From Escherichia coli (GTDB lineage: Bacteria > Pseudomonadota > Gammaproteobacteria > Enterobacterales > Enterobacteriaceae), in the NCBI RefSeq assembly GCF_050920415.1, contig NZ_CP169309.1: 64,000 nucleotides of DNA. The stretch is one strand, 5' to 3'. Position 1 is the first letter of the stretch; every line of letters starts with the position of its first letter. Below the pieces are notes generated by a model. It was given only the letters and a program-made list of their open reading frames with translations, did not search any database and had not been told where the DNA came from. The position numbers and the translations under genes are program-made. Positions 35,234 to 56,150 of the stretch are shown in pieces.

Positions 35234-35367
35234 TATTTTTTATGTTAATAATCAATAATTTGAAAAATGGGCGGAAAGCGTGTTTCCGGTTCGGCGGAAA
35301 AGTGCCTGCCGCAAAAAGCACAACACCGCCCGCAGGCGGTATTGAGACTGATGACAAACGCAACACT

Positions 35368-37730: not shown

Positions 37731-37769
37731 ATGCCGGATGCGACGCTAAACGCGTCTTATCCGGCCTAC
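37731..37769. repeat. REP element between convergent lafZ and lafW
   Basis: atgccggatgcgacgctaaacgcgtcttatccggcctac. Confidence 0.75.
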
Positions 37770-38769: not shown

Positions 38770-39597
38770 TTAGAGAACGCTGAATAAATTCAACTCACTC
38801 ACTTTCGAGTAAGTCTTGAGGGTAGCTTCCATTGCCACTTCCAGTCCGGTAAAGGTGATCGACGCAGGGCCGTAATCGAGATCCTGCAATGAACCAATCA
38901 ACTCATCATTAGAGGTAGAGATATCGGTCTGCGCATCGCTCAGCATCGACATGGTGTTTTGTGTCTCGCCGAGCGACGCAATCGAGGCGTTGAGGTCGTC
39001 CGAGGCGGTGTCCACCACATTAACGGCGTTTTGAATATCGCTTTGTACCTGCGGATCTGCCGGGTCAACGTTAGGGTCTTGCAACTCCTGAGAGAGCGAA
39101 TTGAGCGTGTTGAGCACATCTAAATTACTTCCGAAGAAATCGCTCACCGCCACGTTGGTATCCACTTCAACGCCGTTCGACACCGTCGTCTGGCGATGGT
39201 CGCTGTTACCCTGATAGCTGTAGCTATCGGTCACGCCATCACCGTCATCGTCCAACGCCACAATCGGCGGCTGATCGTTGATGGTGCCGCCAAAGACGTA
39301 ATGCCCGTCTTCATCCTGATAGTTGAGCGCCGCCAGCAGGCTGTTGTTGACGCCATCGAGAATCGACTCCTGCTGGCTTAACCCCGCCGACGCAGAGTCA
39401 ATATTGCTTTGATACTGCTCAATCGCCGACTGCTGGCGGTTCAACTGAGTGATGCGTGTGGCGGCGATAGGATCATCCGATGGCTGCAAAATTTCCTTGC
39501 CGGTTGCCATCTGCTCGACCACGTGCGCCAGTTCGCCAGAAAGATTATTAAAACTTTGCGTCATCGAGACGTAGGTTTGTTGAGTGGTTACTCGCAT
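38770..39597 (-). CDS. lfgL: Hook-filament junction protein FlgL-like (HAP3)
   Basis: Start at internal ATG (MRVTTQQTYVSMTQS...) matching FlgL N-termini. Confidence 0.8.
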   Translation of the reverse strand: MRVTTQQTYVSMTQSFNNLSGELAHVVEQMATGKEILQPSDDPIAATRITQLNRQQSAIEQYQSNIDSASAGLSQQESILDGVNNSLLAALNYQDEDGHYVFGGTINDQPPIVALDDDGDGVTDSYSYQGNSDHRQTTVSNGVEVDTNVAVSDFFGSNLDVLNTLNSLSQELQDPNVDPADPQVQSDIQNAVNVVDTASDDLNASIASLGETQNTMSMLSDAQTDISTSNDELIGSLQDLDYGPASITFTGLEVAMEATLKTYSKVSELNLFSVL

Positions 39598-39611
39598 TTT
39601 CGCGCTCCCGC

Positions 39612-40988: not shown

Positions 40989-41051
40989 GTTGGATCCTTA
41001 CCGGTAAATCGTGCCGGATAAAAGCGGCGTGAAGTTGGGGATTCTTAAGTG

Positions 41052-41195
41052 GGAGGGGGTGCGCGCATTGCCCCCTCACCCTAACCCTCTCCCTGAGGGA
41101 GAGGGGACCGATCGAGCACGGTATTGAACAGGGTGCCGGTTTTCTCCCTCTCCCTGTGGGAGAGGGCCGGGGTGAGGGCATCAGCGCGCACCTCC
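41052..41195. repeat. MITE-like composite palindromic repeat, copy A
   Basis: Inverted GC-rich ends (ggtgcgcgc...gcgcgcacc), arms ccctcaccc/gggtgaggg, two internal hairpins ccctctccc-tga-gggagaggg and ctctccc-tgt-gggagag; matches copies B and C. Confidence 0.7.
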
Positions 41196-41197
41196 CC

Positions 41198-41497
41198 TCA
41201 CCTATGCTTCGGCGACAACTGCTTCACAATCATCGCCGCAATCCCTATCCCGTGCTGCTGCGCCAGGGCGTTACACAACTCATCGTCATAAAATCCCTGC
41301 ATCATGCGCACCGAATCGCTGTTAAATGGGTTATCTTTCGAATCAAACAACTCGTTGGTTTTTCGCATCTCTTTGAGCATGTTGCGTAAAAAAATCGCCT
41401 CAAACTGTTCGGCGGCCTGCTTAATATCATTGGCCTGAACCTTCGGCCCCATTAACGCATCGCTGCCGTCAATCCCGCCGCTGGCGTTGACTTTCAT
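41198..41497 (-). CDS. lfgJ: FlgJ-like rod-assembly protein, rod-binding domain only
   Basis: 99 aa resembling the FlgJ N-terminal domain; no muramidase domain. Confidence 0.7.
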   Translation of the reverse strand: MKVNASGGIDGSDALMGPKVQANDIKQAAEQFEAIFLRNMLKEMRKTNELFDSKDNPFNSDSVRMMQGFYDDELCNALAQQHGIGIAAMIVKQLSPKHR

Positions 41498-42612
41498 CAG
41501 ATCACCTCCAGGTCGGCATCCAGCGCGCCCGCTTCATGCAGCGCCTGCAAAATCGACATAATGTCGTCCGGCGTTGCGCCTAAACTGTTCAGCGCATTGA
41601 CCAACGTTTTCAGGCTGCTCGATTCCGGCAAACTCACCACGCCCGGACGGGCATGATTCACCGCGATATTGCTCTGCGGCGTCACCGCCGTGCGCCCGCC
41701 AGCAAAGGCATTCGGCTGGCTGACGTTGCTGGTTTCGTTAATTGAGACGGTCAGGCTGCCGTGCGACACCGCCGCCGCGTGCAGCGCGATGCCATCGCCC
41801 ATCACCACCGTACCGGTACGCGAGTTAAACACCACGCGGGCGCGGATTTTCTCCGCCTGTACCTGCACATCATCCAGTTGCGACATAAACGCCACCCGCG
41901 CGCCGGGGCTGGTGGGCGCACGCACGGTGACGTTGGTGGAACTCTGCGCCGTGGCAATGCCGCCAAACGAGGCGTTGATCGCCGCCGCAATGTTGTTGGC
42001 GTCTTTAAACGACGGACGTTTCAGGTTAAGCGTGATGGTGTCGCCCATCTGAAAATCGCTGGGAATTTCGCGCTCCACCGTCGCGCCATTGGGGATTAAT
42101 CCGGCGGTCGGCGTATTAACCGTTACGCTCGAGCCGCTGGCCCCGGTGGCGTTCATCCCGCCCACCACCACGCTGCCCTGCGCCAGGGCATACACTTCGC
42201 CATCTGCGCCGTGCAACTGGGTCAGCAGCAAGGTGCCGCCGCGAATACTTTTGGCATCGCCAATCGACGAGACGGTGACATCAATGGTCTGCCCGCGCGA
42301 GTACATCGGCGGCAACGTGGCACTCACCGCCACCGCGGCGACGTTTTTCACCTTCGGGTCGATTTTATTTGGCAACTGCACGCCAAACTGGCGCAGCATA
42401 TTGGTGATGGTCTGGTTGGTGAATTTGACCTGGTTTTTATCGCCCGTACCGTCGAGGCCGACCACCAGGCTGTAGCCGACCAGTTGGTTTTCACGCACGC
42501 CCTGTACGTTGACCAGCGACTCCAGCGATTGCGCCAGCGCCACGCCGGGTAGCGCCAGGGTTACGGCTACCATCACCGTTTTTATCCAGTTTTGCATTGC
42601 ACTCTCCGGCAT
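41497..42612 (-). CDS. lfgI: Flagellar P-ring protein FlgI-like
   Basis: 371 aa, signal peptide, conserved [11 protein letters not shown] motif. Confidence 0.9.
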
Positions 42613-43277
42613 TAAATCGGGAACAGAGGATGGTTAAACAGCCGGGTCAGCCAGCCTGCGGCGTTGGCGTCACTTAACGCGCCACGTCCGGCATAGGAGA
42701 TACGGGCATCGGCGATCCGCTGGGAAGAAACCGAGTTGTCATTCTGGATATCGTCGGCGCGCACCAGGCCGCTTAAGCGGATGTACTCATCGCCCTGATT
42801 GAGGGTGAGCCATTTCTCGCCGCGAATTTCCAGGATGCCGTTGGGCTGCACCGCATGAACGGAAACGGTGATCTCCCCGCGCAGGCTGTTCTGCTGCTGG
42901 GAGGTGGCGCTGCCGTCAAAGTCGCGGTTGGCGTCGATGGAGCCGGAAAGGTTATTTTTGGTGTGACCAAATACCGTTGGCGCGGTAATATCGACGCTGT
43001 TGCTTTTGCCAAAGTTGGTTTTCGCCTGTTTGCTCGACTGGGTGGATTCTTCGAGGATCACTGTCAGAATATCGCCCACGCGGTAAGCCCGCCGATCGGC
43101 GGTTAGCGACCAGTTGTAGCCCGTTTCAAACAAGCCCCCGGCACGCCCGTCTGCCGGAGGCGGCGCTTCGGTTTTCGGTGGCGCAAAGTATGCGTCGTCT
43201 TTTTTGACCAGAATGGCCTGCGATTCACACCCGCTAAGCAGGGGAAGCAGCGCCACCAGCCAGAGATAATTTTTCAC
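42612..43277 (-). CDS. lfgH: Flagellar L-ring lipoprotein FlgH-like
   Basis: 221 aa, lipoprotein signal (LLSGC). Confidence 0.9.
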
Positions 43278-43326
43278 GTTCTGCCTGTTTAGTGTTGCAG
43301 GCCACGGGGGTGGCCGGTTGTTTGGT

Positions 43327-43473
43327 GGGTGCGGAGCTGTTTGTTCCCCCTCACCCTAACCCTCTCCCTCAAGGGAGAGGGGACTGACCTGTGCGCGTTG
43401 TTACATTGTGCACCGCTTTTCTCCCTCTCCCTGTGGGAGAGGGCCGGGGTGAGGGCATCAGGCCGCACCGCCC
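43327..43473. repeat. MITE-like composite palindromic repeat, copy B
   Basis: Same architecture and near-identical core as copy A; lies between lfgH and lfgG. Confidence 0.7.
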
Positions 43474-43481
43474 TTAACGCC

Positions 43482-44267
43482 TTACAGCGTCTGACTGATG
43501 TACTGCAACATATCGTCCGCCGCCGAAACCATTTTGGCGTTCATCTCGTACGCGCGTTGCACCGTAATCATCGCCACCATTTCGTTGACGATATCCACGT
43601 TCGAGCCTTCGAGCGCATTGTCCTGCAAGGTGCCAAGCCCATCTTCGCCCGGTACGCCTTCGGTCGGCTGACCGCTGGCGGCGGTTTCCAGATAGAGGTT
43701 GTCGCCCTCGGCGGAAAGCCCCGCCGGGTTGGCGAAGTTCACCAGCGTCAGTTGCCCTAACTCGGTCACGTCGCTGTCGCCGGGTAAGATAGCCGTCACC
43801 GTACCGTCCTCACCAAACGCAACATTCGTCGCCCCCGCCGGAACGTCGATTTCCGGCTGCAATGGCAAGCCCTGCGAGTTGGTTAGCACGCCGTCGGCAT
43901 TCACCTGCAAATTGCCGTCGCGGGTATAGGCGATATCGCCGTTGGCCTTTTGCACCTGCAAAAACCCCTGCCCCATAATGGCGACATTCATCGCGTTGTC
44001 GGTGGTTTCGACGTTGCCTTCGGTAAAGGTTTTCTGAGTGCCGACAATGCGCACGCCGCTACCGAATTGCAGCCCGGTCGGCATGATGTTGTTCTGGTCG
44101 AGCATCGCGCCCGGCGCTTCCTGGGTCTGGTAGAACAGATCCTGAAACATCACCCGGTCGCGCTTGAAGCCGGTGGTGTTAACGTTGGCGATGTTGTTGG
44201 CAATCGCGCTCATTTCAGCATCCTGCGCCGAGAGGCCGGTTTTGCTGATCCATAATGCTGCGTTCAT
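43482..44267 (-). CDS. lfgG: Distal rod protein FlgG-like
   Basis: 261 aa, FlgG N-terminus (MNAALWISKTGLSAQ...). Confidence 0.9.
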   Translation of the reverse strand: MNAALWISKTGLSAQDAEMSAIANNIANVNTTGFKRDRVMFQDLFYQTQEAPGAMLDQNNIMPTGLQFGSGVRIVGTQKTFTEGNVETTDNAMNVAIMGQGFLQVQKANGDIAYTRDGNLQVNADGVLTNSQGLPLQPEIDVPAGATNVAFGEDGTVTAILPGDSDVTELGQLTLVNFANPAGLSAEGDNLYLETAASGQPTEGVPGEDGLGTLQDNALEGSNVDIVNEMVAMITVQRAYEMNAKMVSAADDMLQYISQTL

Positions 44268-44293
44268 GGTGCTTTATTCCCTGATGTCTGTTA

Positions 44294-45031
44294 TCACGAG
44301 CCGCGCAATAAGCGGTTGCCCGCGTCGCTGATATCTTCGGCAGTTTTCATCATCTTGATCTGCGCTTCAAACTGGCGATTCATGGCGATGGACGACATCA
44401 TTTCGCTCACCGCCGAGACGTTGCTGCCTTCGAGAAAACCGCCGCTGACTTTGATGTTTTCATCGCGCTGGGCCGGAATGCCGTCGCTAGTCACCAGCAT
44501 CCCTTCAGGATTTTTCGCCAGGTTAGCGACAGGGATATCCACCAGCTTCAGGCGGTCGATATCCATCGTGGCGGTCACGTCGCCGTCATCGGGCGTCACC
44601 GAGAGCGTGCCGTCGCTGCCAAAAGAGGCGATGGCGTTCGGCGGCAGAATGATCGGGCCGTTATCCCCCAGCACCAGATTGCCGTCGATGGTCAGTTGCC
44701 CCTGATCGTTCTGCTGAATATTGCCGTTGCGGGTATAGACTTCGTTGCCGTTTTTATCCTGCACCGCAATGTAACCCGCCCCCTGAATCGCCACGTCCAG
44801 CGGGCGTTCGGTTTTCTCCGCCACACCCGTGCTGTCGTTCACGCCGCTGGCCCCTTCCTGCGCCATATAGCGCGTGTCGAAGCCGCCACCTTTCACCTTG
44901 TCGTTGGTCGCCATCGCCATATCGGCGCGAAAACCGTTGGTGTTGACGTTCGCCAGGTTGTTGGCGCTAATCTGCTGCTCATACAACGTCTGCGAAGCCC
45001 CGCTCAGGGCGGTATAAATCAGGCGATCCAT
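44294..45031 (-). CDS. lfgF: Proximal rod protein FlgF-like
   Basis: 245 aa with rod-protein N- and C-terminal motifs. Confidence 0.85.
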   Translation of the reverse strand: MDRLIYTALSGASQTLYEQQISANNLANVNTNGFRADMAMATNDKVKGGGFDTRYMAQEGASGVNDSTGVAEKTERPLDVAIQGAGYIAVQDKNGNEVYTRNGNIQQNDQGQLTIDGNLVLGDNGPIILPPNAIASFGSDGTLSVTPDDGDVTATMDIDRLKLVDIPVANLAKNPEGMLVTSDGIPAQRDENIKVSGGFLEGSNVSAVSEMMSSIAMNRQFEAQIKMMKTAEDISDAGNRLLRGS

Positions 45032-46233
45032 TACATTGCCTGGAACAGCGCGTCATCGAGCTGCGTGCTGGTGGCGATAACTTTGGTGTTGGCCTGATAG
45101 TTACGCTGGGCGGTCATCAGGTTAACCAGTTCGCTGGTGATATCGACGTTAGAGCTCTCAAGCGCTCCCGACGTGAGCGTGCCGCAGGTGCCGGAGCCGG
45201 GAACACCAATCAGTGGCGTGCCGGATTCCCCGGTTTGTACCCACGCGGTGCCGCTTACGGCTTGTAGGCCATCATCGTTAGGGAACGTCGCCAGCACTAC
45301 CTGCCCCTGCAACATGCGCTCGCCGTTGCTGTAGGTGGCGTAAACTTTGCCGTCGTCATCGACCTGCACACCGTTCTGAGTGGCAGAGGCGTAGCCATCG
45401 GCGGCGTTGGTGGTAACCGAGAAGTCAGAGCCGTATTGCGTACAGGTGGAGTAATCGACGGTCAAATCGATGGGCGCGGCGGCGTCGGTCTGAAACTCAA
45501 TGGTCTGCGGGGTGGTGGGCGAAGTCAGTTTTCCGGTATTCGGGTCGAAGGTTAAGGTCGTCGCCGGAACACCGGTCTGCTGCTGACCGTCGAAGGTGTA
45601 CTGCACTTCCCAGGTGTTATCGCTGGTTTTGGTGAAGTACTGGCATACCGAGTGTTCGTTACCTAATGAGTCATACACCGTGGTGGTGTAACTGTCGGTG
45701 TACGAACTGCTGTTGGTCGGATCGAACGGCACGGTAGTGCGGTCGATAGCGTCGTCGCTGGCATCGAGGTTGGCGGTAAAGGTCAGGCTGCTGCTGGCCT
45801 GCGCCGGGATATTGCCGGTTTTGATCTGGATATCCGTCACCGTACCGGTTTGCAAAGTGCCGCTGTCATCGACCGGATAGCCCTGCAAATAAGCGCCCGA
45901 GGCGTTGACGATATAGCCGTCTTTGTCCGTTTCAAACGATCCGGCGCGGGTATAAGAGATGTTGCCCGCGCTGTCGCACATCACAAAAAAGCCGTCGTCG
46001 TTAATCGCCAGATCCAGCGCATTACCGGTGGAGACCAGCGAACCGCCGCGCGAAATACTTTGCGCGGTGCCCGCCACGCTGACGCCCATTGCCTGGCTTC
46101 CGGCATACATGGCTGAAAACTGGGTAGTCATCGACTTATACCCCACCGTTCCGGCGTTAGCGATGTTGTTACTGATCCCGTCCAGCTGTTCGTTAACGGC
46201 ATTCAGCCCCGTTGCGGCAATTTCATAACTCAT
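45031..46233 (-). CDS. lfgE: Hook protein FlgE-like
   Basis: 400 aa with FlgE-type termini. Confidence 0.9.
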   Translation of the reverse strand: MSYEIAATGLNAVNEQLDGISNNIANAGTVGYKSMTTQFSAMYAGSQAMGVSVAGTAQSISRGGSLVSTGNALDLAINDDGFFVMCDSAGNISYTRAGSFETDKDGYIVNASGAYLQGYPVDDSGTLQTGTVTDIQIKTGNIPAQASSSLTFTANLDASDDAIDRTTVPFDPTNSSSYTDSYTTTVYDSLGNEHSVCQYFTKTSDNTWEVQYTFDGQQQTGVPATTLTFDPNTGKLTSPTTPQTIEFQTDAAAPIDLTVDYSTCTQYGSDFSVTTNAADGYASATQNGVQVDDDGKVYATYSNGERMLQGQVVLATFPNDDGLQAVSGTAWVQTGESGTPLIGVPGSGTCGTLTSGALESSNVDITSELVNLMTAQRNYQANTKVIATSTQLDDALFQAM

Positions 46234-46256
46234 TGTTTCTTCCTGTTAATTGATTC

Positions 46257-46970
46257 TTACGCCACATCACTGTCGGCATCGGGTACGCCAAACTGGCTAA
46301 TCATGGTGAACGGCACTTCGCCCACACCTGCAACGTTGAGCACCGGAGAGCTGCCGTCGAGCGGGATACGTACATCCTCCACTTCGCCGGAGACTTCAAT
46401 CGGTACCTCTTCTTCCCCGGTGTTGGTCACCACCGAAACGTCGTAATCACCCGGCGGGATGCCGTAATCCGCCGGATTAATCGAGAAATCAACCTGGCCT
46501 GGTCCAACCGACGAACTCCCTTCCGGGATCAGCGAGACGGTGTAGTCATCGCCCGCGGCATCGGTAAAGTGGAGTTCGGCGGTGGTACAGGCGTCGTCCA
46601 GTGTGGCGCGACCGTTAATGGTCTGGTCACTCACCTGCAAGGCGGTGGTCTGCACCATAATGTCGTCGCCCACCAGGTTGCCGAGCGCCATCACCTGAAT
46701 GTTGCTCATCAGCACCGCGTTGGTATTGGCCTGCACGCTCATCTCTTCCATCATCGCCACCTGCGCCATCGACGAAAGCTGGTCGATATATTCGGTGGCA
46801 TCGGTCGGGTCGGTCGGGTCCTGGTTTTGGATCTCGGCGACAAACAGCGTCAGAAAGGTATCAACGGGCGAGCTATCGCTGCTGCTTGTCGTGTCGCTGG
46901 CCGCCACAGTGTTGCTTTCCGCCGTGGCGGTCGGCTGCGGTGATTGCGCATTCAGCGCCAGGGTATTCAT
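46257..46970 (-). CDS. lfgD: Hook capping protein FlgD-like
   Basis: 237 aa FlgD-like. Confidence 0.8.
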   Translation of the reverse strand: MNTLALNAQSPQPTATAESNTVAASDTTSSSDSSPVDTFLTLFVAEIQNQDPTDPTDATEYIDQLSSMAQVAMMEEMSVQANTNAVLMSNIQVMALGNLVGDDIMVQTTALQVSDQTINGRATLDDACTTAELHFTDAAGDDYTVSLIPEGSSSVGPGQVDFSINPADYGIPPGDYDVSVVTNTGEEEVPIEVSGEVEDVRIPLDGSSPVLNVAGVGEVPFTMISQFGVPDADSDVA

Positions 46971-47401
46971 CAGGCTTCTCCCAGTTTCAGCAGGCTTTGC
47001 TGCATACTTTTCACGTTGTTGAGCACATCGACGTTAGTTTCAAAATCGCGCGAAGCCGACATCATGTCCGCCATCTGTTCCACCACGTTGACATCGGGAT
47101 ACCAGACATCACCGTTGGCATCCGCCAGCGGCGAATGCGGTTCATAGCGTTTCACCGCCCCGCCGGTTTGCAGCACGTCCTGCACCTGCACGCTGGCACC
47201 GTCAATGGCATGGCGATGCGTTCCCGCCAGCAAGCTGTGGTGATAGACCGCCGCAAACACCGGGCTGCGCGCTTTATACGCCTGCGCCTCGCTGCCAGCG
47301 GGCGCATTGGCATTTGCCAGGTTACTGGCAACGGTATTCAGACGTAGCGTTTGCGCCGTCATCGCCGAGCCGGAAATCTGATAGATATCAGTAAATGACA
47401 T
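46970..47401 (-). CDS. lfgC: Rod protein FlgC-like
   Basis: 143 aa, FlgC N-terminus (..ISGSAMTAQ..RLN..ASNLANANAP..). Confidence 0.9.
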   Translation of the reverse strand: MSFTDIYQISGSAMTAQTLRLNTVASNLANANAPAGSEAQAYKARSPVFAAVYHHSLLAGTHRHAIDGASVQVQDVLQTGGAVKRYEPHSPLADANGDVWYPDVNVVEQMADMMSASRDFETNVDVLNNVKSMQQSLLKLGEA

Positions 47402-47403
47402 GC

Positions 47404-47739
47404 TTATTTCCCTTCAATGGCCTCTCTGATGCCGCTGATTTGCAGATTCAGAAAGGTCAGACTGCTTTGATAATCCATACTATTTTGTGAAAACCGCGCC
47501 TGTTCGCTGTTCAGTTCCACGGTGTTACCATCTTCCGATGGCTGCATCGGTACGCGATACTGGACATCCACCGCCGCGTTATTTGCCCGTTGCATCTCCC
47601 TGGCAAAATCAATATCTTTAGCCTTGAAATTTGGCGTATCGACATTCGCCAGATTCGCAGTCAGTAGCTCGGTCCTCTCAAGACGTAACTTCACTGCCTG
47701 CGGATGTACTCCCAATGCTTGTTGAAAACTGATCCCCAT
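47404..47739 (-). CDS. lfgB: Rod protein FlgB-like
   Basis: Start at internal ATG with GGAG RBS, aligning with canonical FlgB N-termini; the longer ORF-track start would sit on the promoter. Confidence 0.85.
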   Translation of the reverse strand: MGISFQQALGVHPQAVKLRLERTELLTANLANVDTPNFKAKDIDFAREMQRANNAAVDVQYRVPMQPSEDGNTVELNSEQARFSQNSMDYQSSLTFLNLQISGIREAIEGK

Positions 47740-47776
47740 TTCTTGCGCCACTCCCGCTTCAATCCGCATACGCTAA

Positions 47777-47792
47777 GCAATCGCTGTGCCAA
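47777..47792 (-). promoter_or_regulatory. Sigma-54 (RpoN) promoter of the lfgB-L operon
   Basis: Minus strand reads TTGGCACAGCGATTGCT (TGGCAC-N5-TTGC) about 40 nt upstream of the lfgB start. Confidence 0.6.
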
Positions 47793-47820
47793 TTTTTAAG
47801 TGACTGATGAGAAAGGGTTT

Positions 47821-48558
47821 ATGAGGTTTCAATTTTGCAGGCGGAAGTTGTATTTCCTCCTGGCGCTGGCCTTACCGGGCTACGCCGCCGTCCATCCCGT
47901 GCAACATAGCGCGCGGGAACAAATCAACGCCCAGGTGCTGAATGCCGCGAGCCAGCAGATTGAATCGCTGGCGCAACAGCGGCAGTGGCATGACTATCGC
48001 TACACCTTTAAGGTCTACATTCCCTCGCAGATTGCGACCGCCGCGCCCTGCGCTACGGCCCCCGGCGTCACGCTGACGTCGCCTGCGGAAATCGCTCTCA
48101 ACCGGATGAACTTCACCGTCAGTTGCCCGCAAAGCTGGCAGATGAACGTTGCGGTGCGCCCGGATGTTCTGGTGCCGGTGGTGATGGCGAAGTCACTGGT
48201 TGCCCGCGATACGCCGCTCACGGCAAATGATGTGGAGCTGAAGCCCTACAACGTCAGCGCCCAGCGGCGGGATGTGCTGATGGATCTCAATGAAGCGATT
48301 GGTTTAAGCAGCAAACATGCCCTGCAACCAGGCAGGCCGCTTACCAAAGAAGAACTGGTTTCGCCAGTGCTGATCGAGCGCGATCAGCCGGTGATGATTG
48401 TTTACCAGAGCGCGGGGATCACCGCCTCGATGCCCGGCGTGGCGCTGAAAAATGGTCGCAAAGGGGAAATGGTGAAAGTACGTAACGCCAGCAGCCAGCG
48501 GGTCATTAGCGCGATGGTGGCCGAAAGCGGCGTGGTGACAACGGTAAGCGCGGAGTAA
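47821..48558 (+). CDS. lfgA: P-ring assembly chaperone FlgA-like
   Basis: Signal peptide and SAF-type C-terminal domain; divergent from lfgB; start at second ATG. Confidence 0.75.
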   Translation: MRFQFCRRKLYFLLALALPGYAAVHPVQHSAREQINAQVLNAASQQIESLAQQRQWHDYRYTFKVYIPSQIATAAPCATAPGVTLTSPAEIALNRMNFTVSCPQSWQMNVAVRPDVLVPVVMAKSLVARDTPLTANDVELKPYNVSAQRRDVLMDLNEAIGLSSKHALQPGRPLTKEELVSPVLIERDQPVMIVYQSAGITASMPGVALKNGRKGEMVKVRNASSQRVISAMVAESGVVTTVSAE

Positions 48559-48746
48559 TTTGCTTCGATACCGCGTAGCATATGTATGACTATCTCCCAA
48601 TATTATGACTTTCTGACAAATTTCATCGTGTCTTTTGGATAATTATTGAGCACTCAATCACTACTGTTTAAATATCCAGATGGTAACTATTTCATCTGGG
48701 TCAAATGAGTGATACTGTATCACCAATAAGACCTATGGGGGATGCT

Positions 48747-50171
48747 ATGTCTGAATTTGAATTACTCGTGAAAGATCTTCTTTTAAAATCAGAAGAAGAC
48801 GAGAAAAAGCGACAAGAAAAAGATCGAGAATTAATTTCAAAGGTCCTTGAAATCTATGATCAAAAATATGTTGCAGAACTCTTACGAAAACTAGGAAAAA
48901 ATGAATGGAGCAGAGAAACACTTAACCGTTGGATAAATGGTAAGTGCAATCCTAAGCAATTAACTTCTGCGGAGGAAACTTTACTCCGCAAGATGCTTCC
49001 AGAACCTCCTGAACATCATCCTAACTACACATTTCGTTTTATTGATTTATTCGCAGGGATTGGTGGTATTCGTAAAGGTTTCGAAAACATTGGTGGACAG
49101 TGTGTTTTTACCAGCGAATGGAATAAAGAAGCGGTAAGAACCTACAAAGCTAATTGGTTTAATGATGAACTAAATCATAAATTTAATCTTGATATACGAG
49201 AAGTCACTTTAAGTGATAGAGATGATGTTTCCGAAGTAGAAGCCTATAATCATATAGACAAAAATATTCCAGATCATGATGTCCTTCTGGCCGGTTTTCC
49301 ATGTCAGCCCTTTAGTCTGGCTGGGGTAAGCAAGAAAAACTCTCTGGGGCGTGCACATGGTTTTGAATGTGAGGCACAAGGAACACTATTTTTTGATGTC
49401 GCTCGGATTATTAAATCAAAAAAACCAGCTATTTTTGTGCTTGAGAATGTGAAAAACCTTAAAAGTCATGATAAAGGTAAGACTTTTAAAGTCATCATGG
49501 AAACACTCGATGAATTAGGATATGAAGTCGCCGATGCTGGTGTTACTGGCTCAGATGATCCCAAAATTATAGATGGAAAACATTTTTTACCCCAACATCG
49601 TGAGCGTATAGTGTTGGTAGGATTTCGTAGAGATCTGAATATTCACAAGGATTTCACGTTACGAAACATTAACCGCTTTTACCCTCAAAACAGGCCAACA
49701 TTTGGTGAATTATTAGATCATGATGTTGACGATAAATATATTTTGACTCCAAGGTTATGGGAATATCTTTACAATTATGCAAAAAAACATGCAGCAAAAG
49801 GCAATGGGTTTGGTTTTGGTTTAGTGGATCCTAAAAATCCAGATAGTATCGCAAGGACTCTGTCTGCTCGTTATCATAAAGATGGCTCTGAAATATTGAT
49901 TGATCGTGGCTGGGATAAGGCTGTCGGTGAAATTGACTTTAGTAATCCAGCGAATCAAGAGCATCGTCCAAGAAGACTGACACCTCACGAATGTGCCAGG
50001 CTAATGGGTTTTGAAAAACCAGGGGGAAGACCTTTTAGAATACCTGTATCGGATACACAAGCCTATAGACAATTTGGGAACTCAGTTGTTGTTCCAGTAT
50101 TTGAAGCTGTAGCAAGATTACTAGAACCATATATACAAAAGGCAGTCAATATGCATATTATTAACGATTAA
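48747..50171 (+). CDS. DNA cytosine-5 methyltransferase, EcoRII/Dcm family (CCWGG specificity predicted)
   Basis: Motifs [30 protein letters not shown]; near-colinear with the M.EcoRII/Dcm sequence as I recall it; GGGGA RBS before the ATG; AT-rich relative to flanks. Confidence 0.9.
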
Positions 50172-50194
50172 TAATAATTAATTTTCACTATTGT

Positions 50195-50217
50195 GAGGCC
50201 TTTTTATTAAAGGCCTC
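50195..50217. terminator. Bidirectional hairpin terminator between the convergent M and R genes
   Basis: gaggccttt-ttatt-aaaggcctc flanked by A/T runs. Confidence 0.5.
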
Positions 50218-50257
50218 TAAATATATAATCATGAGTTTTTACAAGTATGTTTTTATA

Positions 50258-51463
50258 TTATACAAAATCTTCATAAAGCGTTATTAACTGTGTAATAAAA
50301 CCATCTAATGTTAATATTTCCTCCCTGATTTCCTCCGGGTATTTTTTATGAAGAGGGGAAGGTACAACCAAGGTGACACCTTCAGCTCTCATTTCGTTAA
50401 ATTGAGCAACAGAGACACCCTCTTGCAAGGTAAACAAATATATCTTGTTGATTTTATTTGCTTCATTAAGCGCCTGTCGCCACCGATCCTTACATGTTGT
50501 TTTTACAGCAAGCATACGGAGTTTTTCTCTTGGAAAGTGATCATCATGGTAAGCTGCCGCTGATGGGAAAAGAAAATCGGGTTTCTTTTTTCCTTCAGTA
50601 ATACATTGAGTAGCAAAATGATGCAGTCCATGCTCAATAAAAATTTGCTCAAGATGTAGCTCCAGTGATTTCCCGGCTCGAGATTTTCTTCTATTACTAA
50701 CAGAGTTAGCCATAGCTATAAAATCATCTACAGAACCAAATCCTTGACGGATGATGTCCAGTACGTGAATTTCTTCAACCATTAGAAAGAGATCATATTC
50801 AATACGGCGGCGTTCTAAAAGTTGGTCATCTGGACTGGTTACGCCTGTTGGGTAATAACCTGCCGCATATTGGATAATATCTAAGCCAGAAGGAAAACTA
50901 TGTTTCCAGCTTTCCGGAATAACATATTCCTTTTGAGAGATTTTTGGCCTTGATGCGAGTACACCAAGTATTTCACTGGCAGGCCCAAACATTAAAGTTC
51001 CTGGAATGATCTCCCCAACAGCTGATTCCAGTACATCCTCTTCTTCTGGGCTTACACAAACCCATACATCAACACTTTTGCTGTCTCTCCCAGGCTCATG
51101 TTCAAACGCAAGCACAGACAAAGCACCTGTATTTTCCGGATCTTGTAGGGGACTGCCAGCCCCCCACCGAGTGATACGTTTTTCATTTCTTGTTTGCCCG
51201 AAATACTTATTATTGTAGTAAATAGCGCGAACCTCACTGTCTACACATTCATGAGAGGAATAAGTTGCGCGCAATAAAACCGAAGGATTTTTTTCTGACG
51301 TATGATCTATAGATGGGAAAAGTTCACCGACGATACCGGAAGGGATATATACCCCCACTTGATGCCCTCCTGTTGCACCAGTGTCGTTTGCTGAAAGACG
51401 TTTGATATAGAGATAATTGTTACCACCGACCTTATCAAGCAGCCAATCTTGTAATCCTGACAT
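50258..51463 (-). CDS. Type IIE restriction endonuclease, EcoRII family
   Basis: 401 aa; long conserved blocks matching R.EcoRII as I recall it (YIKRLSANDTGATGGHQVG, RNEKRITRWG, SPLQDPENTGAL, SVSNRRKSRAGKSLELHLE, KPDFLFPS, LRMLAVKTTCKDRWRQ); convergent with the methyltransferase. Confidence 0.85.
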   Translation of the reverse strand: MSGLQDWLLDKVGGNNYLYIKRLSANDTGATGGHQVGVYIPSGIVGELFPSIDHTSEKNPSVLLRATYSSHECVDSEVRAIYYNNKYFGQTRNEKRITRWGAGSPLQDPENTGALSVLAFEHEPGRDSKSVDVWVCVSPEEEDVLESAVGEIIPGTLMFGPASEILGVLASRPKISQKEYVIPESWKHSFPSGLDIIQYAAGYYPTGVTSPDDQLLERRRIEYDLFLMVEEIHVLDIIRQGFGSVDDFIAMANSVSNRRKSRAGKSLELHLEQIFIEHGLHHFATQCITEGKKKPDFLFPSAAAYHDDHFPREKLRMLAVKTTCKDRWRQALNEANKINKIYLFTLQEGVSVAQFNEMRAEGVTLVVPSPLHKKYPEEIREEILTLDGFITQLITLYEDFV

Positions 51464-51633
51464 AAGACATCCTTATTTTTGCATAGTATCCGATTCAGAT
51501 TTTTCCACATATCCATCAGAACGACCAGAACCAACATATCTGAACAAAAAGTAAATATGCGATAACGATTAAAGTTTTGCCGCCTGTTAACCGCTTTACC
51601 GGAGTAACCACCCAATACCGAGACGAGGTTGCG

Positions 51634-51912
51634 ATGAAAATCACCCCGACGATGCCAGGCAATCGCCCGACAGCCACAACGGCAGGCTCCAGCCAGCCGC
51701 GTAAAAGTACGGCGACCACCACCACGACGCTGAGTGCCGACGACATTACCCAGGCGGGATTGCAGTCTGCCCAGCAAACGCTGAACGACCAGCAAGAGAG
51801 CGATATCGACAGCGATAAAGTGGCGCAAATGCAGGCGATGCTGGCGTCCGGCAGCCTGCAAGTGGACACCGAACAGTTAGCCAGCGACATGCTGAGTTTT
51901 TTCCAGAACTAA
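51634..51912 (+). CDS. lfgM: Anti-sigma-28 factor FlgM-like
   Basis: Start at internal ATG with GAGG RBS; about 92 aa, Thr/Ser-rich N-terminus, C-terminal sigma-binding-like helix. Confidence 0.7.
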   Translation: MKITPTMPGNRPTATTAGSSQPRKSTATTTTTLSADDITQAGLQSAQQTLNDQQESDIDSDKVAQMQAMLASGSLQVDTEQLASDMLSFFQN

Positions 51913-51924
51913 GAGGCCGATGAA

Positions 51925-52353
51925 GTGAGTATCCGGTTACAACAGGTGAAGGCGTTGTTGCAGGGCATTCGTGACGATGACGCGCTGTACGATTCCCTGC
52001 GCGAACTTCTCCAGCGTCAGCGGATCTGCATGATTCGCCGCGCCAGTGAAGAGTTGCTGGCGGTAAACGACGAGATAACGCAGCACTATGAGCAGTTGCA
52101 TGGACATAGCCATCAGCGCCATAGCCTGCTGAAAATGCTCGGTGTTAGCGTCAATCGTGACGGTCTGGCGCAGGTGTTTGCCTGGCTTCCGGCGGTACAA
52201 AAAGCGGCAGCACAACAGTTGTGGCAACGCCTGGAGCAAAAAACGGAACGCTGCAAAGCCTATAACGATAAAAACGGCGAGCTGTTGATTCGTCAGTATG
52301 AATTTATTCAGTCTTTTTTAGGCAGCGAAGCGGATTTTCTGTATCAGGAATAA
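51925..52353 (+). CDS. lfgN: Flagellar export chaperone FlgN-like
   Basis: GTG start 8 nt after AAGAGG; 142 aa helical; follows lfgM. Confidence 0.65.
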   Translation: MSIRLQQVKALLQGIRDDDALYDSLRELLQRQRICMIRRASEELLAVNDEITQHYEQLHGHSHQRHSLLKMLGVSVNRDGLAQVFAWLPAVQKAAAQQLWQRLEQKTERCKAYNDKNGELLIRQYEFIQSFLGSEADFLYQE

Positions 52354-52430
52354 CGCGAATACCTTCCCCATAGCGGAAACGGATTTTCCGCCTGATTTCC
52401 AATCCTTTGTTTTTGATTAAAAAAATTCCC

Positions 52431-52445
52431 GGCACGCTTATTGCA
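52431..52445 (+). promoter_or_regulatory. Sigma-54-type promoter upstream of the 309-aa hypothetical gene
   Basis: GGCACGCTTATTGCA (GG-N10-GC spacing, TTGCA -12 element) about 35 nt before the ATG at 52480. Confidence 0.45.
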
Positions 52446-52479
52446 CATCCTGCACAGCATTAAAGACTGGAAGCCACCT

Positions 52480-53409
52480 ATGAGTTTTATTGAATGTTAC
52501 GAACCGGAATATGCGCGCAATTTTATGGCGCAATATCCCGATTCGCCTTTATACGTCCGCAAGGTGTGGAAGAATGAGATTCGCCAGAGCCTGGCATTGA
52601 CCGATATTGCCAGTTGCAAAGCAGTGCTCAACAATGCCAGGGCCTTTGAATTACAGCTTACCTATCGCCCTGTGGAAGAAAATGCCGCAGCGCTATCTGC
52701 GCGCGATGCGATAGTAAACCAGATAATTTTGAGCACCCTCACGCTCCCGGATTTAACCCCAGAGCTTTCACTGTATGCCGTCGGGATTTTGCTCTCCCGC
52801 GCCAGTAAAATGCCGGGCAGAGACGGCGACACTCTCGCCCGGCTGACAGCACTGCCGCAGGCGCTGGCCGATCACGCACAAAAAGGCACGTTACAGGCAC
52901 AGTTCGCACAGCTACCGCCTGTGCCACAGCTGGCGCGCCAACTGGTGACGCTGCTCGGGAGTTTTGCGTTTGACTGGTCGATTCTGCCGAAAAGCCCGCG
53001 CAAAGCCTCACTGCCGTTGCAGGTTACCTTGCTGACGCTGCACGACGCCAACAGCGAAGCCCTGTTGCAGCAGCAGCTTCAGACACAGTGGCAAACTACC
53101 TGGCAACAGCATTTTGCCACCGCGCCGTGGATGATGCGTAACTGGCTAATTTACCGGGTTTATCACGATGTGATTGGCCAGGCAGACGGGGCGGATTATT
53201 TCCCGCTGGTGTGCGATTTTTACCTCATCCGCACGTTAATCAGTTTATGGACGCTGGATGATTCACCGCTGCGGCAGGAGGATATTTTCGCCCTCTTCGC
53301 GGTGTTTGAACGCTGGCGAACCAGTGAAAATGCCGTGCTGATTCGCCAGCAAATTCAGTCATTATGTGCCGCCGACCCGCTGCTTTCAGCGTTTTCGTTG
53401 CTGACGTGA
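52480..53409 (+). CDS. Hypothetical protein, no recognisable domain; apparent sigma-54 regulon member within Flag-2
   Basis: 309 aa from the first ATG downstream of the promoter; typical GC content; the ORF-track start at 52441 is a TTG inside the promoter. Confidence 0.6.
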   Translation: MSFIECYEPEYARNFMAQYPDSPLYVRKVWKNEIRQSLALTDIASCKAVLNNARAFELQLTYRPVEENAAALSARDAIVNQIILSTLTLPDLTPELSLYAVGILLSRASKMPGRDGDTLARLTALPQALADHAQKGTLQAQFAQLPPVPQLARQLVTLLGSFAFDWSILPKSPRKASLPLQVTLLTLHDANSEALLQQQLQTQWQTTWQQHFATAPWMMRNWLIYRVYHDVIGQADGADYFPLVCDFYLIRTLISLWTLDDSPLRQEDIFALFAVFERWRTSENAVLIRQQIQSLCAADPLLSAFSLLT

Positions 53410-53416
53410 GTCGCTC

Positions 53417-53553
53417 TGTGCGCGCTTTGCCCTCACCCCGGCCCTCTCCCACAGGGAGAGGGAGAAACCCTGCGCCCAATTCAGCACCGCGCTCGATCGG
53501 TCCCCTCGCCCCTTCGGGGAGAGGGTTAGGGTGAGGGACATCAGCGCGCGCAT
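53417..53553. repeat. MITE-like composite palindromic repeat, copy C (inverted relative to A and B)
   Basis: Reverse complement of the copy A/B core: ccctcaccccggccctctcccacagggagaggg ... ggggagagggttagggtgaggg with gcgcgc ends. Confidence 0.7.
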
Positions 53554-53596: not shown

Positions 53597-56041
53597 ATGC
53601 CAACACCAAGCATCATCAAAACACTCGCCACCCACCGCGAAAAACCGTTCGTCAGCGTCGTCACGCCAACATGGAACCGCGGCGCATTCCTCCCGTACCT
53701 GCTCTATATGTACCGCTATCAGGACTACCCGGCAGACCGCCGCGAACTGGTCATCCTTGACGACTCGCCGCAAAGCCATCAACACATCATCGACCGCCTG
53801 ACCAATGGCACGCCGGAAGCCTTTAACATCCGCTACATCCATCACCCGGAAAAACTGCCGCTGGGAAAAAAACGCAATATGCTCAACGAACTGGCGAGCG
53901 GCGAATATATCCTCTGCATGGATGACGACGACTACTACCCGGCAGATAAAATCTCTTACACCATCGCCATGATGCAAAAACACCGGGCGCTGATCTCCGG
54001 TTCCGACCAGATCCCCATCTGGTACAGCCATATCAACCGCATCTTTCAAAGCCGCAGCTTTGGCCCGCGTAACATCCTCAACGGCACCTTTTGTTATCAC
54101 CGTAACTACCTGAAAAAGCACCGTTACAATGACGATTGCAATTTAGGCGAAGAGAAAAGTTTCACCGACAATTTCAGCGTAAACCCGCTGCAACTGCCCG
54201 GCGAGCGCACGATTTTGTGTATTTCGCATAGCCACAACACCTTTGATAAAGACTTTATTCTCGGGGCCAGCACGCCAGTAAACGCGGCGCTTACGGATAT
54301 CGTCACCGATCCGCTGCTCCGCAATGCTTATCTGAGTCTGCATAACGCCACGCATCACCAGGGGATCAACCATCAGGCGATCTATCAGATCGTTCTGCTG
54401 AATCTGGATAAACGCCCGGATCGTTTACGGCAGATCCGTGAAGAGCTGGCATTGCTGCATATTCCGCCTGAAAAAATTACCCGCCTTGCCGCCTGTGAAG
54501 ATGAAAACGGTCAACGGGGCCGCCGCCTGTCGCACTTGCAGGCGCTACGCCTGGCGCAACAGCACGGCTGGCAAAACTATCTGCTGCTGGAAGATGACGC
54601 GGTTATTCTCAAGCAGGAGAAACATATTCAGGTGCTGAACACGCTGCTGGCGAGCCTGGCGAAAATTCCCTGGCAGGTGATGATCCTCGGAGGCGAAATT
54701 TCGCAAGGAACAATGCTAAAAAGCCTGCCGGGGCTGGTGCACGCGCAGGACTGCCGCAAAGTGTGCGCTTATCTGGTGAACAGCCGGTACTACCCACAAC
54801 TGGCGCAGCAGATGAGTAACGATGAGCACTCGCTGGAAGACGGCTGGCAGCCACTGCTGCGTGCCGACAAATGGCTGGCCTGTTACCCGAGCCTTAGTTA
54901 TCAGCGACCGGGCTTTAGCGATATCGAGAAAAAAGCGACTGATAACATTAACCACTACTTCAATAAGTTACCCGTAGCCACCAAGCCATCTACATTACCT
55001 ATCGCCGACACCATCGGCTTTTTAATGGAAACCTCATTCCACTACGCGCTCTATCGCCCAATCATCACCGCTCTACAGGCGCAGGGGCAGAGCTGCACGC
55101 TGGTGATCAACGACCGCGTGTTTAAACCGTTTCTGGATGAAATGCTGGAGACGCTAAAAACCATCGACGATCCGCAGCTCAAAGGTATGCGCTTGTCTGA
55201 GATGCAGGCACACGGTCAGCGGGTGAAATGCCTGGTCAGCCCCTACCACACGCCCGCGCTCAATGGCCTGGCAGCGGTGAACATCCGCGCTATGTACGGC
55301 TTAGCCAAAGAAACGTGGAACCACGCCGACTGGAACCGTTTTTATCAGCGCATTTTGTGTTATAGCCACTACAGTCAGCAGGCGCTGGCGCATTTCGGCA
55401 GCGCAAAAGTGGTCGGCAATCCACGCTTCGACGCCTGGCATAACGGCACGTTCGACCGTGCGTTGCCGGAAAATATCCAACCAGATTACCGTAAACCTAC
55501 GGTGCTCTACGCCCCAACATTTGGCGCATTAAGCTCCCTGCCCCACTGGGCAGAAAAATTGGGCCGCTTAAGCGGTGATGTGAACCTGATTTGCAAACTG
55601 CACCACGGTACCTGCTCGCGCCCGGAAGAAGCCGCATCGCTGACCCTGGCACGCAGGCATTTAAAGCAGAGCACCGACTCCGCCCGTCACACGCTGGCGA
55701 TGCTGGCAAAAGCCGATTACGTGCTCACCGATAACAGCGGCTTTATTTTCGATGCTATCCACGTTGATAAGCGGGTGATCCTGCTCGACTTTCCGGGCAT
55801 GACGGAACTGCTCGACGGTGAGAAAAGTTATTCCACACCGGAGAGCGCCGACCAGCGAATCCGCGAAATATTACCGGTGGCTCATGATATGGCTGAGCTG
55901 CGTTACTTATTGTCAGAGGCGTTTGACTGGGGGGCGGTACAGGCGCGGCTTACGGAGATTCGCCATCACTATTGTGACGCGTTTATGGATGGCAAGGCGG
56001 GAGAACGGGCGGCGATGGTGGTTGTGGAGGCATTGGGGTAA
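53597..56041 (+). CDS. Three-domain glycosyltransferase: GT2-like N-terminus, GT25-like middle, TagF-like CDP-glycerol glycerophosphotransferase C-terminus
   Basis: About 815 aa; N-terminus VSVVTPTWNR and DDD motif; middle LNLDKRPDRL..LLLEDDAV; C-terminus PTVLYAPTFG and YVLTDNSGFIFDA; ORF-track start at 53531 lies inside repeat C. Confidence 0.8.
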   Translation: MPTPSIIKTLATHREKPFVSVVTPTWNRGAFLPYLLYMYRYQDYPADRRELVILDDSPQSHQHIIDRLTNGTPEAFNIRYIHHPEKLPLGKKRNMLNELASGEYILCMDDDDYYPADKISYTIAMMQKHRALISGSDQIPIWYSHINRIFQSRSFGPRNILNGTFCYHRNYLKKHRYNDDCNLGEEKSFTDNFSVNPLQLPGERTILCISHSHNTFDKDFILGASTPVNAALTDIVTDPLLRNAYLSLHNATHHQGINHQAIYQIVLLNLDKRPDRLRQIREELALLHIPPEKITRLAACEDENGQRGRRLSHLQALRLAQQHGWQNYLLLEDDAVILKQEKHIQVLNTLLASLAKIPWQVMILGGEISQGTMLKSLPGLVHAQDCRKVCAYLVNSRYYPQLAQQMSNDEHSLEDGWQPLLRADKWLACYPSLSYQRPGFSDIEKKATDNINHYFNKLPVATKPSTLPIADTIGFLMETSFHYALYRPIITALQAQGQSCTLVINDRVFKPFLDEMLETLKTIDDPQLKGMRLSEMQAHGQRVKCLVSPYHTPALNGLAAVNIRAMYGLAKETWNHADWNRFYQRILCYSHYSQQALAHFGSAKVVGNPRFDAWHNGTFDRALPENIQPDYRKPTVLYAPTFGALSSLPHWAEKLGRLSGDVNLICKLHHGTCSRPEEAASLTLARRHLKQSTDSARHTLAMLAKADYVLTDNSGFIFDAIHVDKRVILLDFPGMTELLDGEKSYSTPESADQRIREILPVAHDMAELRYLLSEAFDWGAVQARLTEIRHHYCDAFMDGKAGERAAMVVVEALG

Positions 56042-56052
56042 ACCGCAGAAGT

Positions 56053-56150
<98 letters not shown>

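Follow-up and report, generated by a model that had tools for sequence, protein, structure and literature searches.

Three palindromic repeats of an Escherichia coli Flag-2 region match the BoxC family and are very probably passengers of tolerated intergenic gaps

The window analysed here is a stretch of 64,000 nucleotides from Escherichia coli (contig NZ_CP169309.1 of assembly GCF_050920415.1) that carries Flag-2 lfg genes and a glycosylation island. Three palindromic, GC-rich elements of ~133-140 bp lie in this window, and all three are intergenic: the first occupies the lfgJ-lfgK gap, the second the lfgG-lfgH gap, and the third the gap between a hypothetical gene and a glycosyltransferase gene, both of which belong to the glycosylation island. 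The flanking genes were named from the annotation of a genome that is 99.97-100% identical, and they bear out the placement by an earlier note of two copies inside the lfg operon, after lfgJ and after lfgG. The three repeat copies described in that note are confirmed, with limits that were refined by taking each element from a terminal GTGCGCGC to a terminal GCGCGCAC, the termini of copy B being degenerate. The composites and their units are given below, with each unit compared with the K-12 TM_ECO sequences in Table 1 of PMC4666352.

41059..41191 (133 bp), no strand given: composite copy A, in the lfgJ-lfgK gap, co-transcribed on the - strand
41072..41105, - strand: type A unit of copy A, CCCTCTCCC-TCA-GGGAGAGGG-TTA-GGGTGAGGGG, 33/34 nt identical to K-12 TM_ECO no. 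17
41146..41179, + strand: type B unit of copy A, CCCTCTCCC-TGT-GGGAGAGGG-CCG-GGGTGAGGGC, 34/34 nt identical to K-12 TM_ECO nos. 1 and 4
43329..43468 (140 bp), no strand given: composite copy B, in the lfgG-lfgH gap, co-transcribed on the - strand
43347..43381, - strand: type A unit of copy B, 34/35 nt identical to TM_ECO no. 2
43423..43456, + strand: type B unit of copy B, 34/34 nt identical to TM_ECO no. 1
53418..53551 (134 bp), no strand given: composite copy C, between the hypothetical gene (52480-53409, +) and the glycosyltransferase gene (53597-56041, +)
53429..53462, - strand: type B unit of copy C, 34/34 nt identical to TM_ECO no. 1
53503..53538, + strand: type A "mm" unit of copy C, with one hairpin mismatch, 34/36 nt identical to TM_ECO no. 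7

Read along the + strand, copy A consists of a terminus, GTGCGCGC-ATTG, a type A unit in reverse complement, a spacer of ~40 bp, a type B unit and a second terminus, CATCAGCGCGCAC, and its palindrome reaches weakly to ~41041-41201. Copy B has the same layout, but its termini are degenerate (GTGCGGAG and GGCCGCAC) and its spacer has diverged further. In copy C the core is flipped, so that a type B unit in reverse complement comes first and the type A unit second. All three pairs therefore combine a type A with a type B unit in inverted arrangement. The ends of the elements, GTGCGCGC..CCCTCACCC and GGGTGAGGG..GCGCGCAC, form terminal inverted repeats around 133-140 bp of non-coding DNA, a feature that is trivially expected for any long palindrome. 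The outer-arm 9-mer GGGTGAGGG occurs six times in the window, always within the three elements (0.23 expected), and the pattern CCCTCTCCC-N2-6-GGGAGAGGG occurs five times (0 expected); the sixth hairpin, formed by the right-hand unit of copy C, contains a single mismatch (CCCTCGCCCC..GGGGAGAGGG). The earlier description of inverted termini, outer arms and internal hairpins holds up in all but the predicted fold, which is taken up below. When the three copies are aligned, the mean column identity is 83% over ~170 columns. Pairwise likeness is only 85-88%, and the copies are thus not recent copies of one another; on the same grounds a recent local duplication inside Flag-2 was rejected.

The family to which these elements belong was identified by searching the literature with the sequence itself. 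All six units match K-12 TM_ECO sequences, three of them over 34/34 nt and the others over 33/34, 34/35 and 34/36 nt, and the plan of a BoxC unit is found in them: three blocks of 9-10 nt in the order CCCTC[T/G]CCC, a loop, GGGAGAGGG, a 3-nt loop and GGGTGAGGG. The second loop distinguishes the BoxC subtypes, with TTA in type A and CCG in type B, and both are found here. The name BoxC (Bergler et al. 1992; Bachellier et al. 1999) covers the same family as PIT (Hoyne et al. 2000; Hoyne & Maher 2002) and TM_ECO (Holder et al. 2015, PMC4666352), and it is PMC4666352 that equates TM_ECO both with the BoxC of Bergler 1992 (envM) and with PIT elements, citing Bergler 1992 as its source for BoxC. The K-12 ycjD-fabI gap, upstream of fabI (envM), carries ccctcaccctaaccctctccccagaggggcgagggg, which is TM_ECO no. 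9, and this unit at the BoxC locus of Bergler 1992 supports the BoxC naming. Paired units are also known from K-12, in which five inverted pairs were described, each made of A plus B (Holder et al. 2015, PMC4666352). The K-12 lldD-trmL gap has the same A+B layout as the copies in the window. The abstract of the 1999 survey by Bachellier and colleagues is said to place boxC repeats within a composite element, and reportedly gives RSA and boxC as separate families.

Judged by their sequence, the three elements are ordinary BoxC composites, that is, inverted A+B pairs of an already-known family. The window units are identical to published BoxC/PIT/TM_ECO sequences or differ by 1-2 nt, they come in A and B variants, and they are strictly intergenic; the pairs are inverted A plus B, their alleles are unstable between strains, and they are dispersed in nearly all E. 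coli. We see no essential difference between the window copies and this family. The suggestion in the earlier note of a Box C-like family was thus correct, and since that note held that a match to a named family would make the observation descriptive rather than new, it is to be read as descriptive. Its separation of the element from REP/BIME and ERIC is also sustained. Matches to the REP consensus (GCCGGATGCGGCG...CTTATCCGGCCTAC) fall in the window only at 35432-35465 and 56116-56149, the ERIC core consensus has a single match at 27227-27270, and neither the REP/BIME consensus nor the ERIC/IRU core consensus matches within the three elements. Rfam covariance models gave no match at gathering score in the elements, and relaxed thresholds gave only chance-level matches (E of at least 0.38).

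The same units have also been met under another name. The G-rich parts of the window A and B units coincide exactly with the 21-mers GGGAGAGGGTTAGGGTGAGGG and GGGAGAGGGCCGGGGTGAGGG of HPG1/HPG2 (Kaplan et al. 2016, PMC5100583), and the upstream C-rich block and, before type B, the T-run are shared as well. Unlike the present reading, PMC5100583 treats HPG1/HPG2 as putative regulatory G-quadruplexes, with no link to BoxC or to a paired composite, and terms the motifs a "G-quadruplex-hairpin-duplex switch". Identical oligonucleotides form an intrastrand triplex or a G-quadruplex in vitro by CD and NMR (PMC4666352, PMC5100583); in vivo DMS footprinting did not show it.

The alleles of these gaps vary between strains. 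Among ~1268 E. coli genomes with the lfg region, those with a BoxC allele number at most 39 at lfgJ-K, 192 at lfgG-H and 747 at the site of copy C. The three other alleles that were read, those of EC958, PC6 and APEC37, have REP/BIME in the lfgJ-K and lfgG-H gaps and further BIMEs in the lfgF-G and lfgD-E gaps, which hold nothing in the window. Some palindromic repeat, either BoxC or REP, is present in all lfgJ-K and lfgG-H alleles read, and a structured spacer of some kind could be useful there. The rarity of BoxC at these two gaps, where most Flag-2-positive E. coli have REP/BIME or another allele instead, argues against the Flag-2-specific role that the earlier note had entertained. The copy C site is nearly empty in EC958, with a gap of 46 bp, and across strains this site shows a core flip and trimmed forms, while lldD-trmL shows a decay series; with the replaced gaps, this is raised instability between strains, consisting of allelic turnover, core inversion and trimming. 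Local sequence instability of TM_ECO is reported in PMC4666352 as well. Copy C had been described as inverted, and this is true of its core but not of its termini, which keep the left/right polarity of copy A and of strains PC6 and XD35. All three cores have one orientation relative to transcription, for which the chance is 1 in 4, and the PC6 core at the copy C site is oriented opposite to that of the window. To our knowledge, neither the Flag-2 insertion sites nor the in-place core flip at site C have been described previously.

The reading that we favor, and consider very probable, is that the Flag-2 repeats are BoxC composites that sit as non-coding passengers in tolerated gaps and are not a dedicated Flag-2 control device. 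Each has a type A and a type B unit inverted around a ~40-bp spacer and is capped by GTGCGCGC.../...GCGCGCAC. In the DNA, so long an imperfect palindrome would promote hairpin or slipped structures in replication, and these structures would be the cause of the flips, partial deletions and replacements by which the strains differ. In the RNA, the hairpin would be carried within lfg and glycosylation-gene transcripts without terminating transcription, and would serve at most as a generic structured spacer, either a 3'-exonuclease barrier or a substrate for a double-strand RNase, by analogy with what is known for other intergenic palindromes. The repeats of the window can accordingly be annotated as BoxC/PIT/TM_ECO composites, and the Flag-2 operon requires no new regulatory hypothesis. 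One observation that a pure random-passenger model does not explain is the clustering of the copies. The nearest genome has seven places of the element, three of them within 12.5 kb of Flag-2. Of 5426 complete E. coli genomes, 5096 carry the family, and the median number of places is six, so that the claim of the earlier note that the element is confined to Flag-2 holds within the window but not genome-wide.

An unlikely alternative sees in the composite a mobile element of MITE- or REPIN-like type that is non-autonomous, is mobilised in trans and was inserted three times independently in Flag-2. The elements do resemble one in being small, non-coding and dispersed, with inverted termini and with presence/absence differences between strains. 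BoxC elements occur in many enterobacterial genera and beyond: exact A..B composites with unrelated spacers are found in distant phyla, with exact 21+21-nt matches outside Enterobacteriaceae in Pseudomonas, Devosia, Planctomycetota and Verrucomicrobiia assemblies, and Pseudocitrobacter has tandem arrays and dozens of near-identical copies that are up to 94% identical to copy A with its spacer included. The doublet architecture is also REPIN-like, in that two inverted short palindromic units surround a spacer and form one long hairpin, and BoxC composites, like REPINs, are intergenic, multi-copy and sometimes arranged in tandem arrays. Against mobility, no direct repeats were found at the ends of copies A, B and C, and there was no clean empty allele at the three Flag-2 gaps or at K-12 lldD-trmL, where the differences are replacements or internal deletions that suggest decay or replacement rather than excision. 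The BoxC sequence is unrelated to that of REPINs and has no GTAG-type REP head, and a tblastn search with E. coli RayT, a single query against the limited sample of 1.05 Mb flanking 120 composites, gave no RAYT match. The RAYT of E. coli itself is tied to REP/BIME and not to BoxC. The divergence of the window copies from one another counts against recent spread, and BoxC loci are largely conserved between E. coli strains (62 conserved loci in 56 strains; PMC4666352). No link of TM_ECO to mobile elements, whether by transposon, phage or plasmid association, was found by Holder et al. (PMC4666352). A plasmid-borne origin was considered here; plasmid matches were few, several of them lay on chromosome-sized records, and few were genuine. 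Known MITEs such as ERIC/IRU, the Correia elements of Neisseria and the YPAL of Yersinia share with BoxC composites their small, non-coding, palindromic form, and they are often co-transcribed and can form long RNA hairpins, a feature that they have in common with BoxC. BoxC composites differ from them in having no detectable target-site duplication, known parent IS or demonstrated RNA processing. The term "MITE-like" that had been applied to these repeats finds no support in its strict sense, given that neither a target-site duplication nor a clean empty site was found, nor, with the RAYT query, an associated transposase.

A more daring version of this alternative, which we regard as a long shot, holds that what replicates is the inverted A+B composite as a whole rather than the single BoxC unit, in the manner of a broad-host-range REPIN-like element with a putative mobilising enzyme, and that the core flip between the 9-nt outer arms is a regular by-product of the palindrome. 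If true, it would explain the conservation of the A/B asymmetry, the exact 21+21-nt matches in distant genomes, and the burst and tandem arrays in Pseudocitrobacter.

Also quite improbable is selected operon punctuation, an idea of the earlier note, in which the hairpins would stabilise mRNA or be processed by RNases and in this way uncouple the rod/ring genes lfgB-J from the hook-associated genes lfgK-L, and lfgG from lfgH, and so tune protein stoichiometry. Two copies are indeed co-transcribed within the lfg gene string, a palindromic repeat of some kind is present in each lfgJ-K and lfgG-H allele examined, and the RNA hairpins are predicted to be extremely stable. REP elements are known to stabilise upstream mRNA. 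The mRNA-strand folds have energies of -108 kcal/mol for copy A (z-score -8.4), -90 kcal/mol for copy B (z-score -7.4) and -92 kcal/mol for copy C (z-score -6.7). Each copy is predicted to fold as a single long, imperfect hairpin, which is more stable by 7-12 kcal/mol than a stem bearing two hairpins; the cruciform or compound stem-loop proposed earlier is right as to the palindromic structure, but thermodynamic prediction favors the single hairpin. What comes after the hairpins on the mRNA strand is AGAAAA or UUAGGG and no U tract, which indicates that they are not intrinsic terminators or attenuators. Inside the elements, no terminator-like sites or sigma-70 promoter patterns were found on the transcribed strand. 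According to the summary given in PMC4666352, PIT/BoxC has no promoter or terminator activity and does not affect RNA polymerase, and the attenuator idea of the earlier note finds no support on either count. Punctuation also fits poorly with the alleles, since BoxC is rare among Flag-2 loci, a different family fills these gaps in the other alleles read, the occupied gaps vary by strain (lfgD-E and lfgF-G being empty here and filled elsewhere), and the copy C site can be almost empty, as in EC958. An effect on lfg mRNA stability or processing is possible. Finally, chance or low-complexity G/C-rich sequence is excluded as the source of the likeness of the three sites by motif counts well over those of shuffled sequence, by the column identity of the aligned copies and by homologous copies that number thousands across E. 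coli genomes.

With the window repeats read as BoxC composites, they bear on questions that have attended the family since the 1990s, namely its manner of spread, the constant pairing of A with B and any effect at the RNA level. For these questions the Flag-2 locus is a handy natural allelic series, in which the gaps hold BoxC pairs, BIMEs or nothing depending on the strain, and one core has been flipped in place.

Three intergenic repeats of the window, copies A, B, and C, were delimited at their terminal GTGCGCGC and GCGCGCAC sequences, and genes were assigned from the annotation of E. coli MFDS1022581 (NZ_CP169399.1), to which the window region is 99.97-100% identical.

Copies A-C and neighboring genes
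39612-40988, - strand, lfgK, one neighbor of copy A
41059-41191, copy A, lfgJ-lfgK gap
41198-41497, - strand, lfgJ, rod-binding gene, other neighbor of copy A
42612-43277, - strand, lfgH, one neighbor of copy B
43329-43468, copy B, lfgG-lfgH gap
43482-44267, - strand, lfgG, other neighbor of copy B
52480-53409, + strand, hypothetical gene, one neighbor of copy C
53418-53551, copy C, hypothetical gene-glycosyltransferase gene gap
53597-56041, + strand, glycosyltransferase gene, other neighbor of copy C

The three copies align with 83% mean column identity over ~170 columns, including two invariant blocks, one on each side (CCCTCACCCTAACCCTCTCCC and TTTCTCCCTCTCCCTGTGGGAGAGGGCCGGGGTGAGGGCA). All six occurrences of the 9-mer GGGTGAGGG in the 64-kb window lie inside copies A-C, against an expectation of 0.23, and the hairpin CCCTCTCCC-N2-6-GGGAGAGGG occurs five times versus none in shuffles, with a sixth in copy C carrying one mismatch. 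The repeats are therefore real rather than chance. Direct reading thus agrees with the earlier note on the three copies and their positions, and the NZ_CP169399.1 gene coordinates confirm that two of them follow lfgJ and lfgG. Because the flanking genes are codirectional at all three sites, the copies are presumably transcribed. In each element, two related units of about 50-56 bp lie in inverted orientation on either side of a spacer of ~40 bp. On the + strand of copies A and B, the left unit (type A) is the reverse complement of CCCTCTCCC-loop-GGGAGAGGG-TTA-GGGTGAGGG, and the right unit (type B), preceded by TTTTCT, reads CCCTCTCCC-loop-GGGAGAGGG-CCG-GGGTGAGGG; the outer caps are GTGCGCGC(A/T)TTG... 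and ...CATCAGCGCGCAC.

Searching the literature with the repeat sequence itself led to the family. Holder et al. (2015, PMC4666352) catalogued 23 "TM_ECO" motifs in K-12 MG1655, always intergenic, and state that the motif had already been named BoxC (Bergler et al. 1992, envM) and that Hoyne and Maher later found it again as the PIT element. All three type B units of the window match TM_ECO nos. 1 and 4 at 34/34 nt (Table 1 of PMC4666352), and the type A units of copies A, B, and C match nos. 17, 2, and 7 at 33/34, 34/35, and 34/36. On this agreement, which bears out the earlier "Box C-like" guess, the window repeats belong to the already known BoxC/PIT/TM_ECO family. Holder et al. also count five inverted pairs in K-12, each type A plus type B and "comparable" to those of Hoyne et al. 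(PMC4666352), and the conserved G-quadruplex motifs HPG1 and HPG2 of Kaplan et al. (2016, PMC5100583), with a C-rich block upstream and a T-run ahead of HPG2, are the same two 21-mers as in the A and B units. Our own check of K-12 places a BoxC unit in the gap preceding fabI (envM) and A+B pairs in the hrpB-mrcB, ygfF-gcvP, alx-sstT, fepB-entC, and lldD-trmL gaps, the last in the A(reverse complement)..B layout seen in the window. Of 5426 complete E. coli genomes, 5096 carry the family, at a median of 6 places. RSA and boxC are reportedly listed as distinct families, and boxC described as part of a composite element, in the abstract of the 1999 survey by Bachellier, Clement and Hofnung.

The window region has ~94-95% identity to the Flag-2 lfg region in ~1268 other complete E. 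coli genomes. The repeats in its gaps vary. The lfgJ-K and lfgG-H gaps of EC958, PC6, and APEC37 hold REP/BIME sequences, not BoxC pairs; their lfgF-G and lfgD-E gaps carry BIMEs of up to 439 bp, against window gap lengths of 26 and 23 bp, respectively; and the Flag-2 gaps of compared strains (loci L005/L006/L007) contain one to several REP/BIME units. A match covering at least 80% of the query (each element plus flanks) was found in only 39 genomes for lfgJ-K, 192 for lfgG-H, and 747 for the copy C site. The copy C site reads A(reverse complement)..B, the canonical order, in PC6 and XD35; in the window it reads B(reverse complement)..A, and the spacer is reversed too (compared with loci L006 23505-23650, L134, L007, and L135). 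The left GTGCGCGCTTTG and right CATCAGCGCGC termini have identical polarity in the window and in PC6/XD35. Copy C is an in-place core flip between inverted CCCTCACCC/GGGTGAGGG arms, an arrangement that suggests recombination between these 9-nt arms. APEC37 and TUM18530 carry a trimmed allele without the outer arms, equivalent to what Holder et al. call the "palindrome effect" (PMC4666352), and EC958 has an unrelated 46-bp gap. A similar decay series is seen for the K-12 lldD-trmL pair, whose gap measures 197, 185, 153, 72, and 47 bp in other strains. In E. coli WP4-S18-ESBL-08 (L138), a short palindrome containing CTGTCTCTTGATCAGATCT stands in place of the core of this pair; the palindrome resembles an IS50/Tn5 end. 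The Flag-2 cluster is a hot spot of repeat turnover and reproduces the published instability of BoxC between strains, which is significantly elevated locally at the motif (PMC4666352).

On the transcribed strand, each copy is predicted to fold as one long imperfect hairpin (copy A, -108.4 kcal/mol, z = -8.4 versus shuffles; copy B, -89.7 kcal/mol, z = -7.4; copy C, -91.5 kcal/mol, z = -6.7). Forcing two local hairpins costs 7-12 kcal/mol, so the "double hairpin on stem" of the earlier note gives way to the long hairpin as predicted ground state and is retained as a plausible cotranscriptional intermediate. An attenuator role had also been proposed; the hairpins are followed by no U run on the mRNA strand in any of the three copies, a consensus scan of the transcribed strand within the elements detected neither a terminator-like site nor a sigma-70-like promoter, and this proposal is not sustained. 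Rfam returned no matching family for the elements at gathering or relaxed thresholds. According to the work summarized in PMC4666352, PIT elements block DNA polymerase in vitro without effect in vivo, lack promoter and terminator activity, and leave RNA polymerase unaffected. A triplex forms in isolated single strands and is not detectable in duplex DNA, nor in vivo by DMS footprinting, and genes neighboring the motif have no function bias (PMC4666352). Given this published inactivity and the strain-to-strain instability at Flag-2, we take copies A-C to be tolerated passengers; the chief effect that can be shown for them is that the DNA is structurally unstable. A functional reading keeps a low probability, and two points speak for it: some palindromic repeat is present in every lfgJ-K and lfgG-H allele read, and the three cores of the window are all oriented alike with respect to transcription, for which chance alone gives 1 in 4, although the PC6 core at the copy C site is oriented oppositely. 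These presumed passengers may have a generic, unproven effect on RNA, acting as an exonuclease barrier or as a double-strand-RNase substrate.

Recent local duplication as the origin of copies A-C is ruled out because they are only 85-88% alike. In the nearest genome, 3 of 7 places of the element lie within 12.5 kb, a clustering not accounted for by passengers landing purely at random. No direct repeats were found at the ends of copies A-C and no clean empty site at the four loci compared (three Flag-2 sites and lldD-trmL). Of the earlier interpretation, the Box C guess stands, and neither the strict MITE reading nor the attenuator is supported. A RAYT search of 1.05 Mb around 120 composites (inverted A+B pairs around a spacer) gave no match. 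The G/C-rich motif was previously reported as widely distributed (>260 genomes). Our cross-species scan covered one genome per species with the pattern CCCTCACCCTAACCCTCTCCC-N55-85-GGGAGAGGGCCGGGGTGAGGG. Among the matches listed are Enterobacter, Kluyvera, Cedecea, Lelliottia, Buttiauxella, Pantoea, Serratia, and Phytobacter, together with Pseudocitrobacter, which has dozens of composites up to 94% identical to copy A, spacer included, some in tandem arrays with a period of 126 bp. Dozens occur in Pseudocitrobacter faecalis DSM 27453 (locus L032 3897-4292; also L041 and L043). Also among the matches listed are Pseudomonas, Devosia, Polaromonas, Rhodospirillaceae, Desulfobulbaceae, Planctomycetota, and Verrucomicrobiia assemblies. 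Composites of the distant assemblies (L018-L024, L113, L118-L121, L127), some of which are MAGs with possible contamination, have the exact 21+21-nt A..B arrangement with unrelated spacers. The mode of spread is the only part of the finding with residual potential for novelty.

Other features of the region were recorded alongside the repeats. Relative to NZ_CP169399.1 (otherwise 99.97-99.985% identical), lfgL (38770-39621) lacks 102 bp, in frame, at about 39327-39335. Inside Flag-2, between lfgA and lfgM, lie a DNA cytosine methyltransferase gene (48747-50171, + strand) and a type II restriction endonuclease gene (50258-51463, - strand); EC958, PC6, and APEC37 have a gap of only ~80 bp where the window has this pair (48747-51463). 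Upstream of Flag-2, Rfam matches at 3940-4140 and 16627-16699 correspond to IS009 RNA (195 bits) and a tRNA gene. The window further contains a single REP (37751-37769), one ERIC copy (27227-27270), and two BIME-type REP clusters (35356-35466 and 56041-56150), the first of which coincides with an Rfam "ES036 (CssrF) sRNA" match at 35389-35431.
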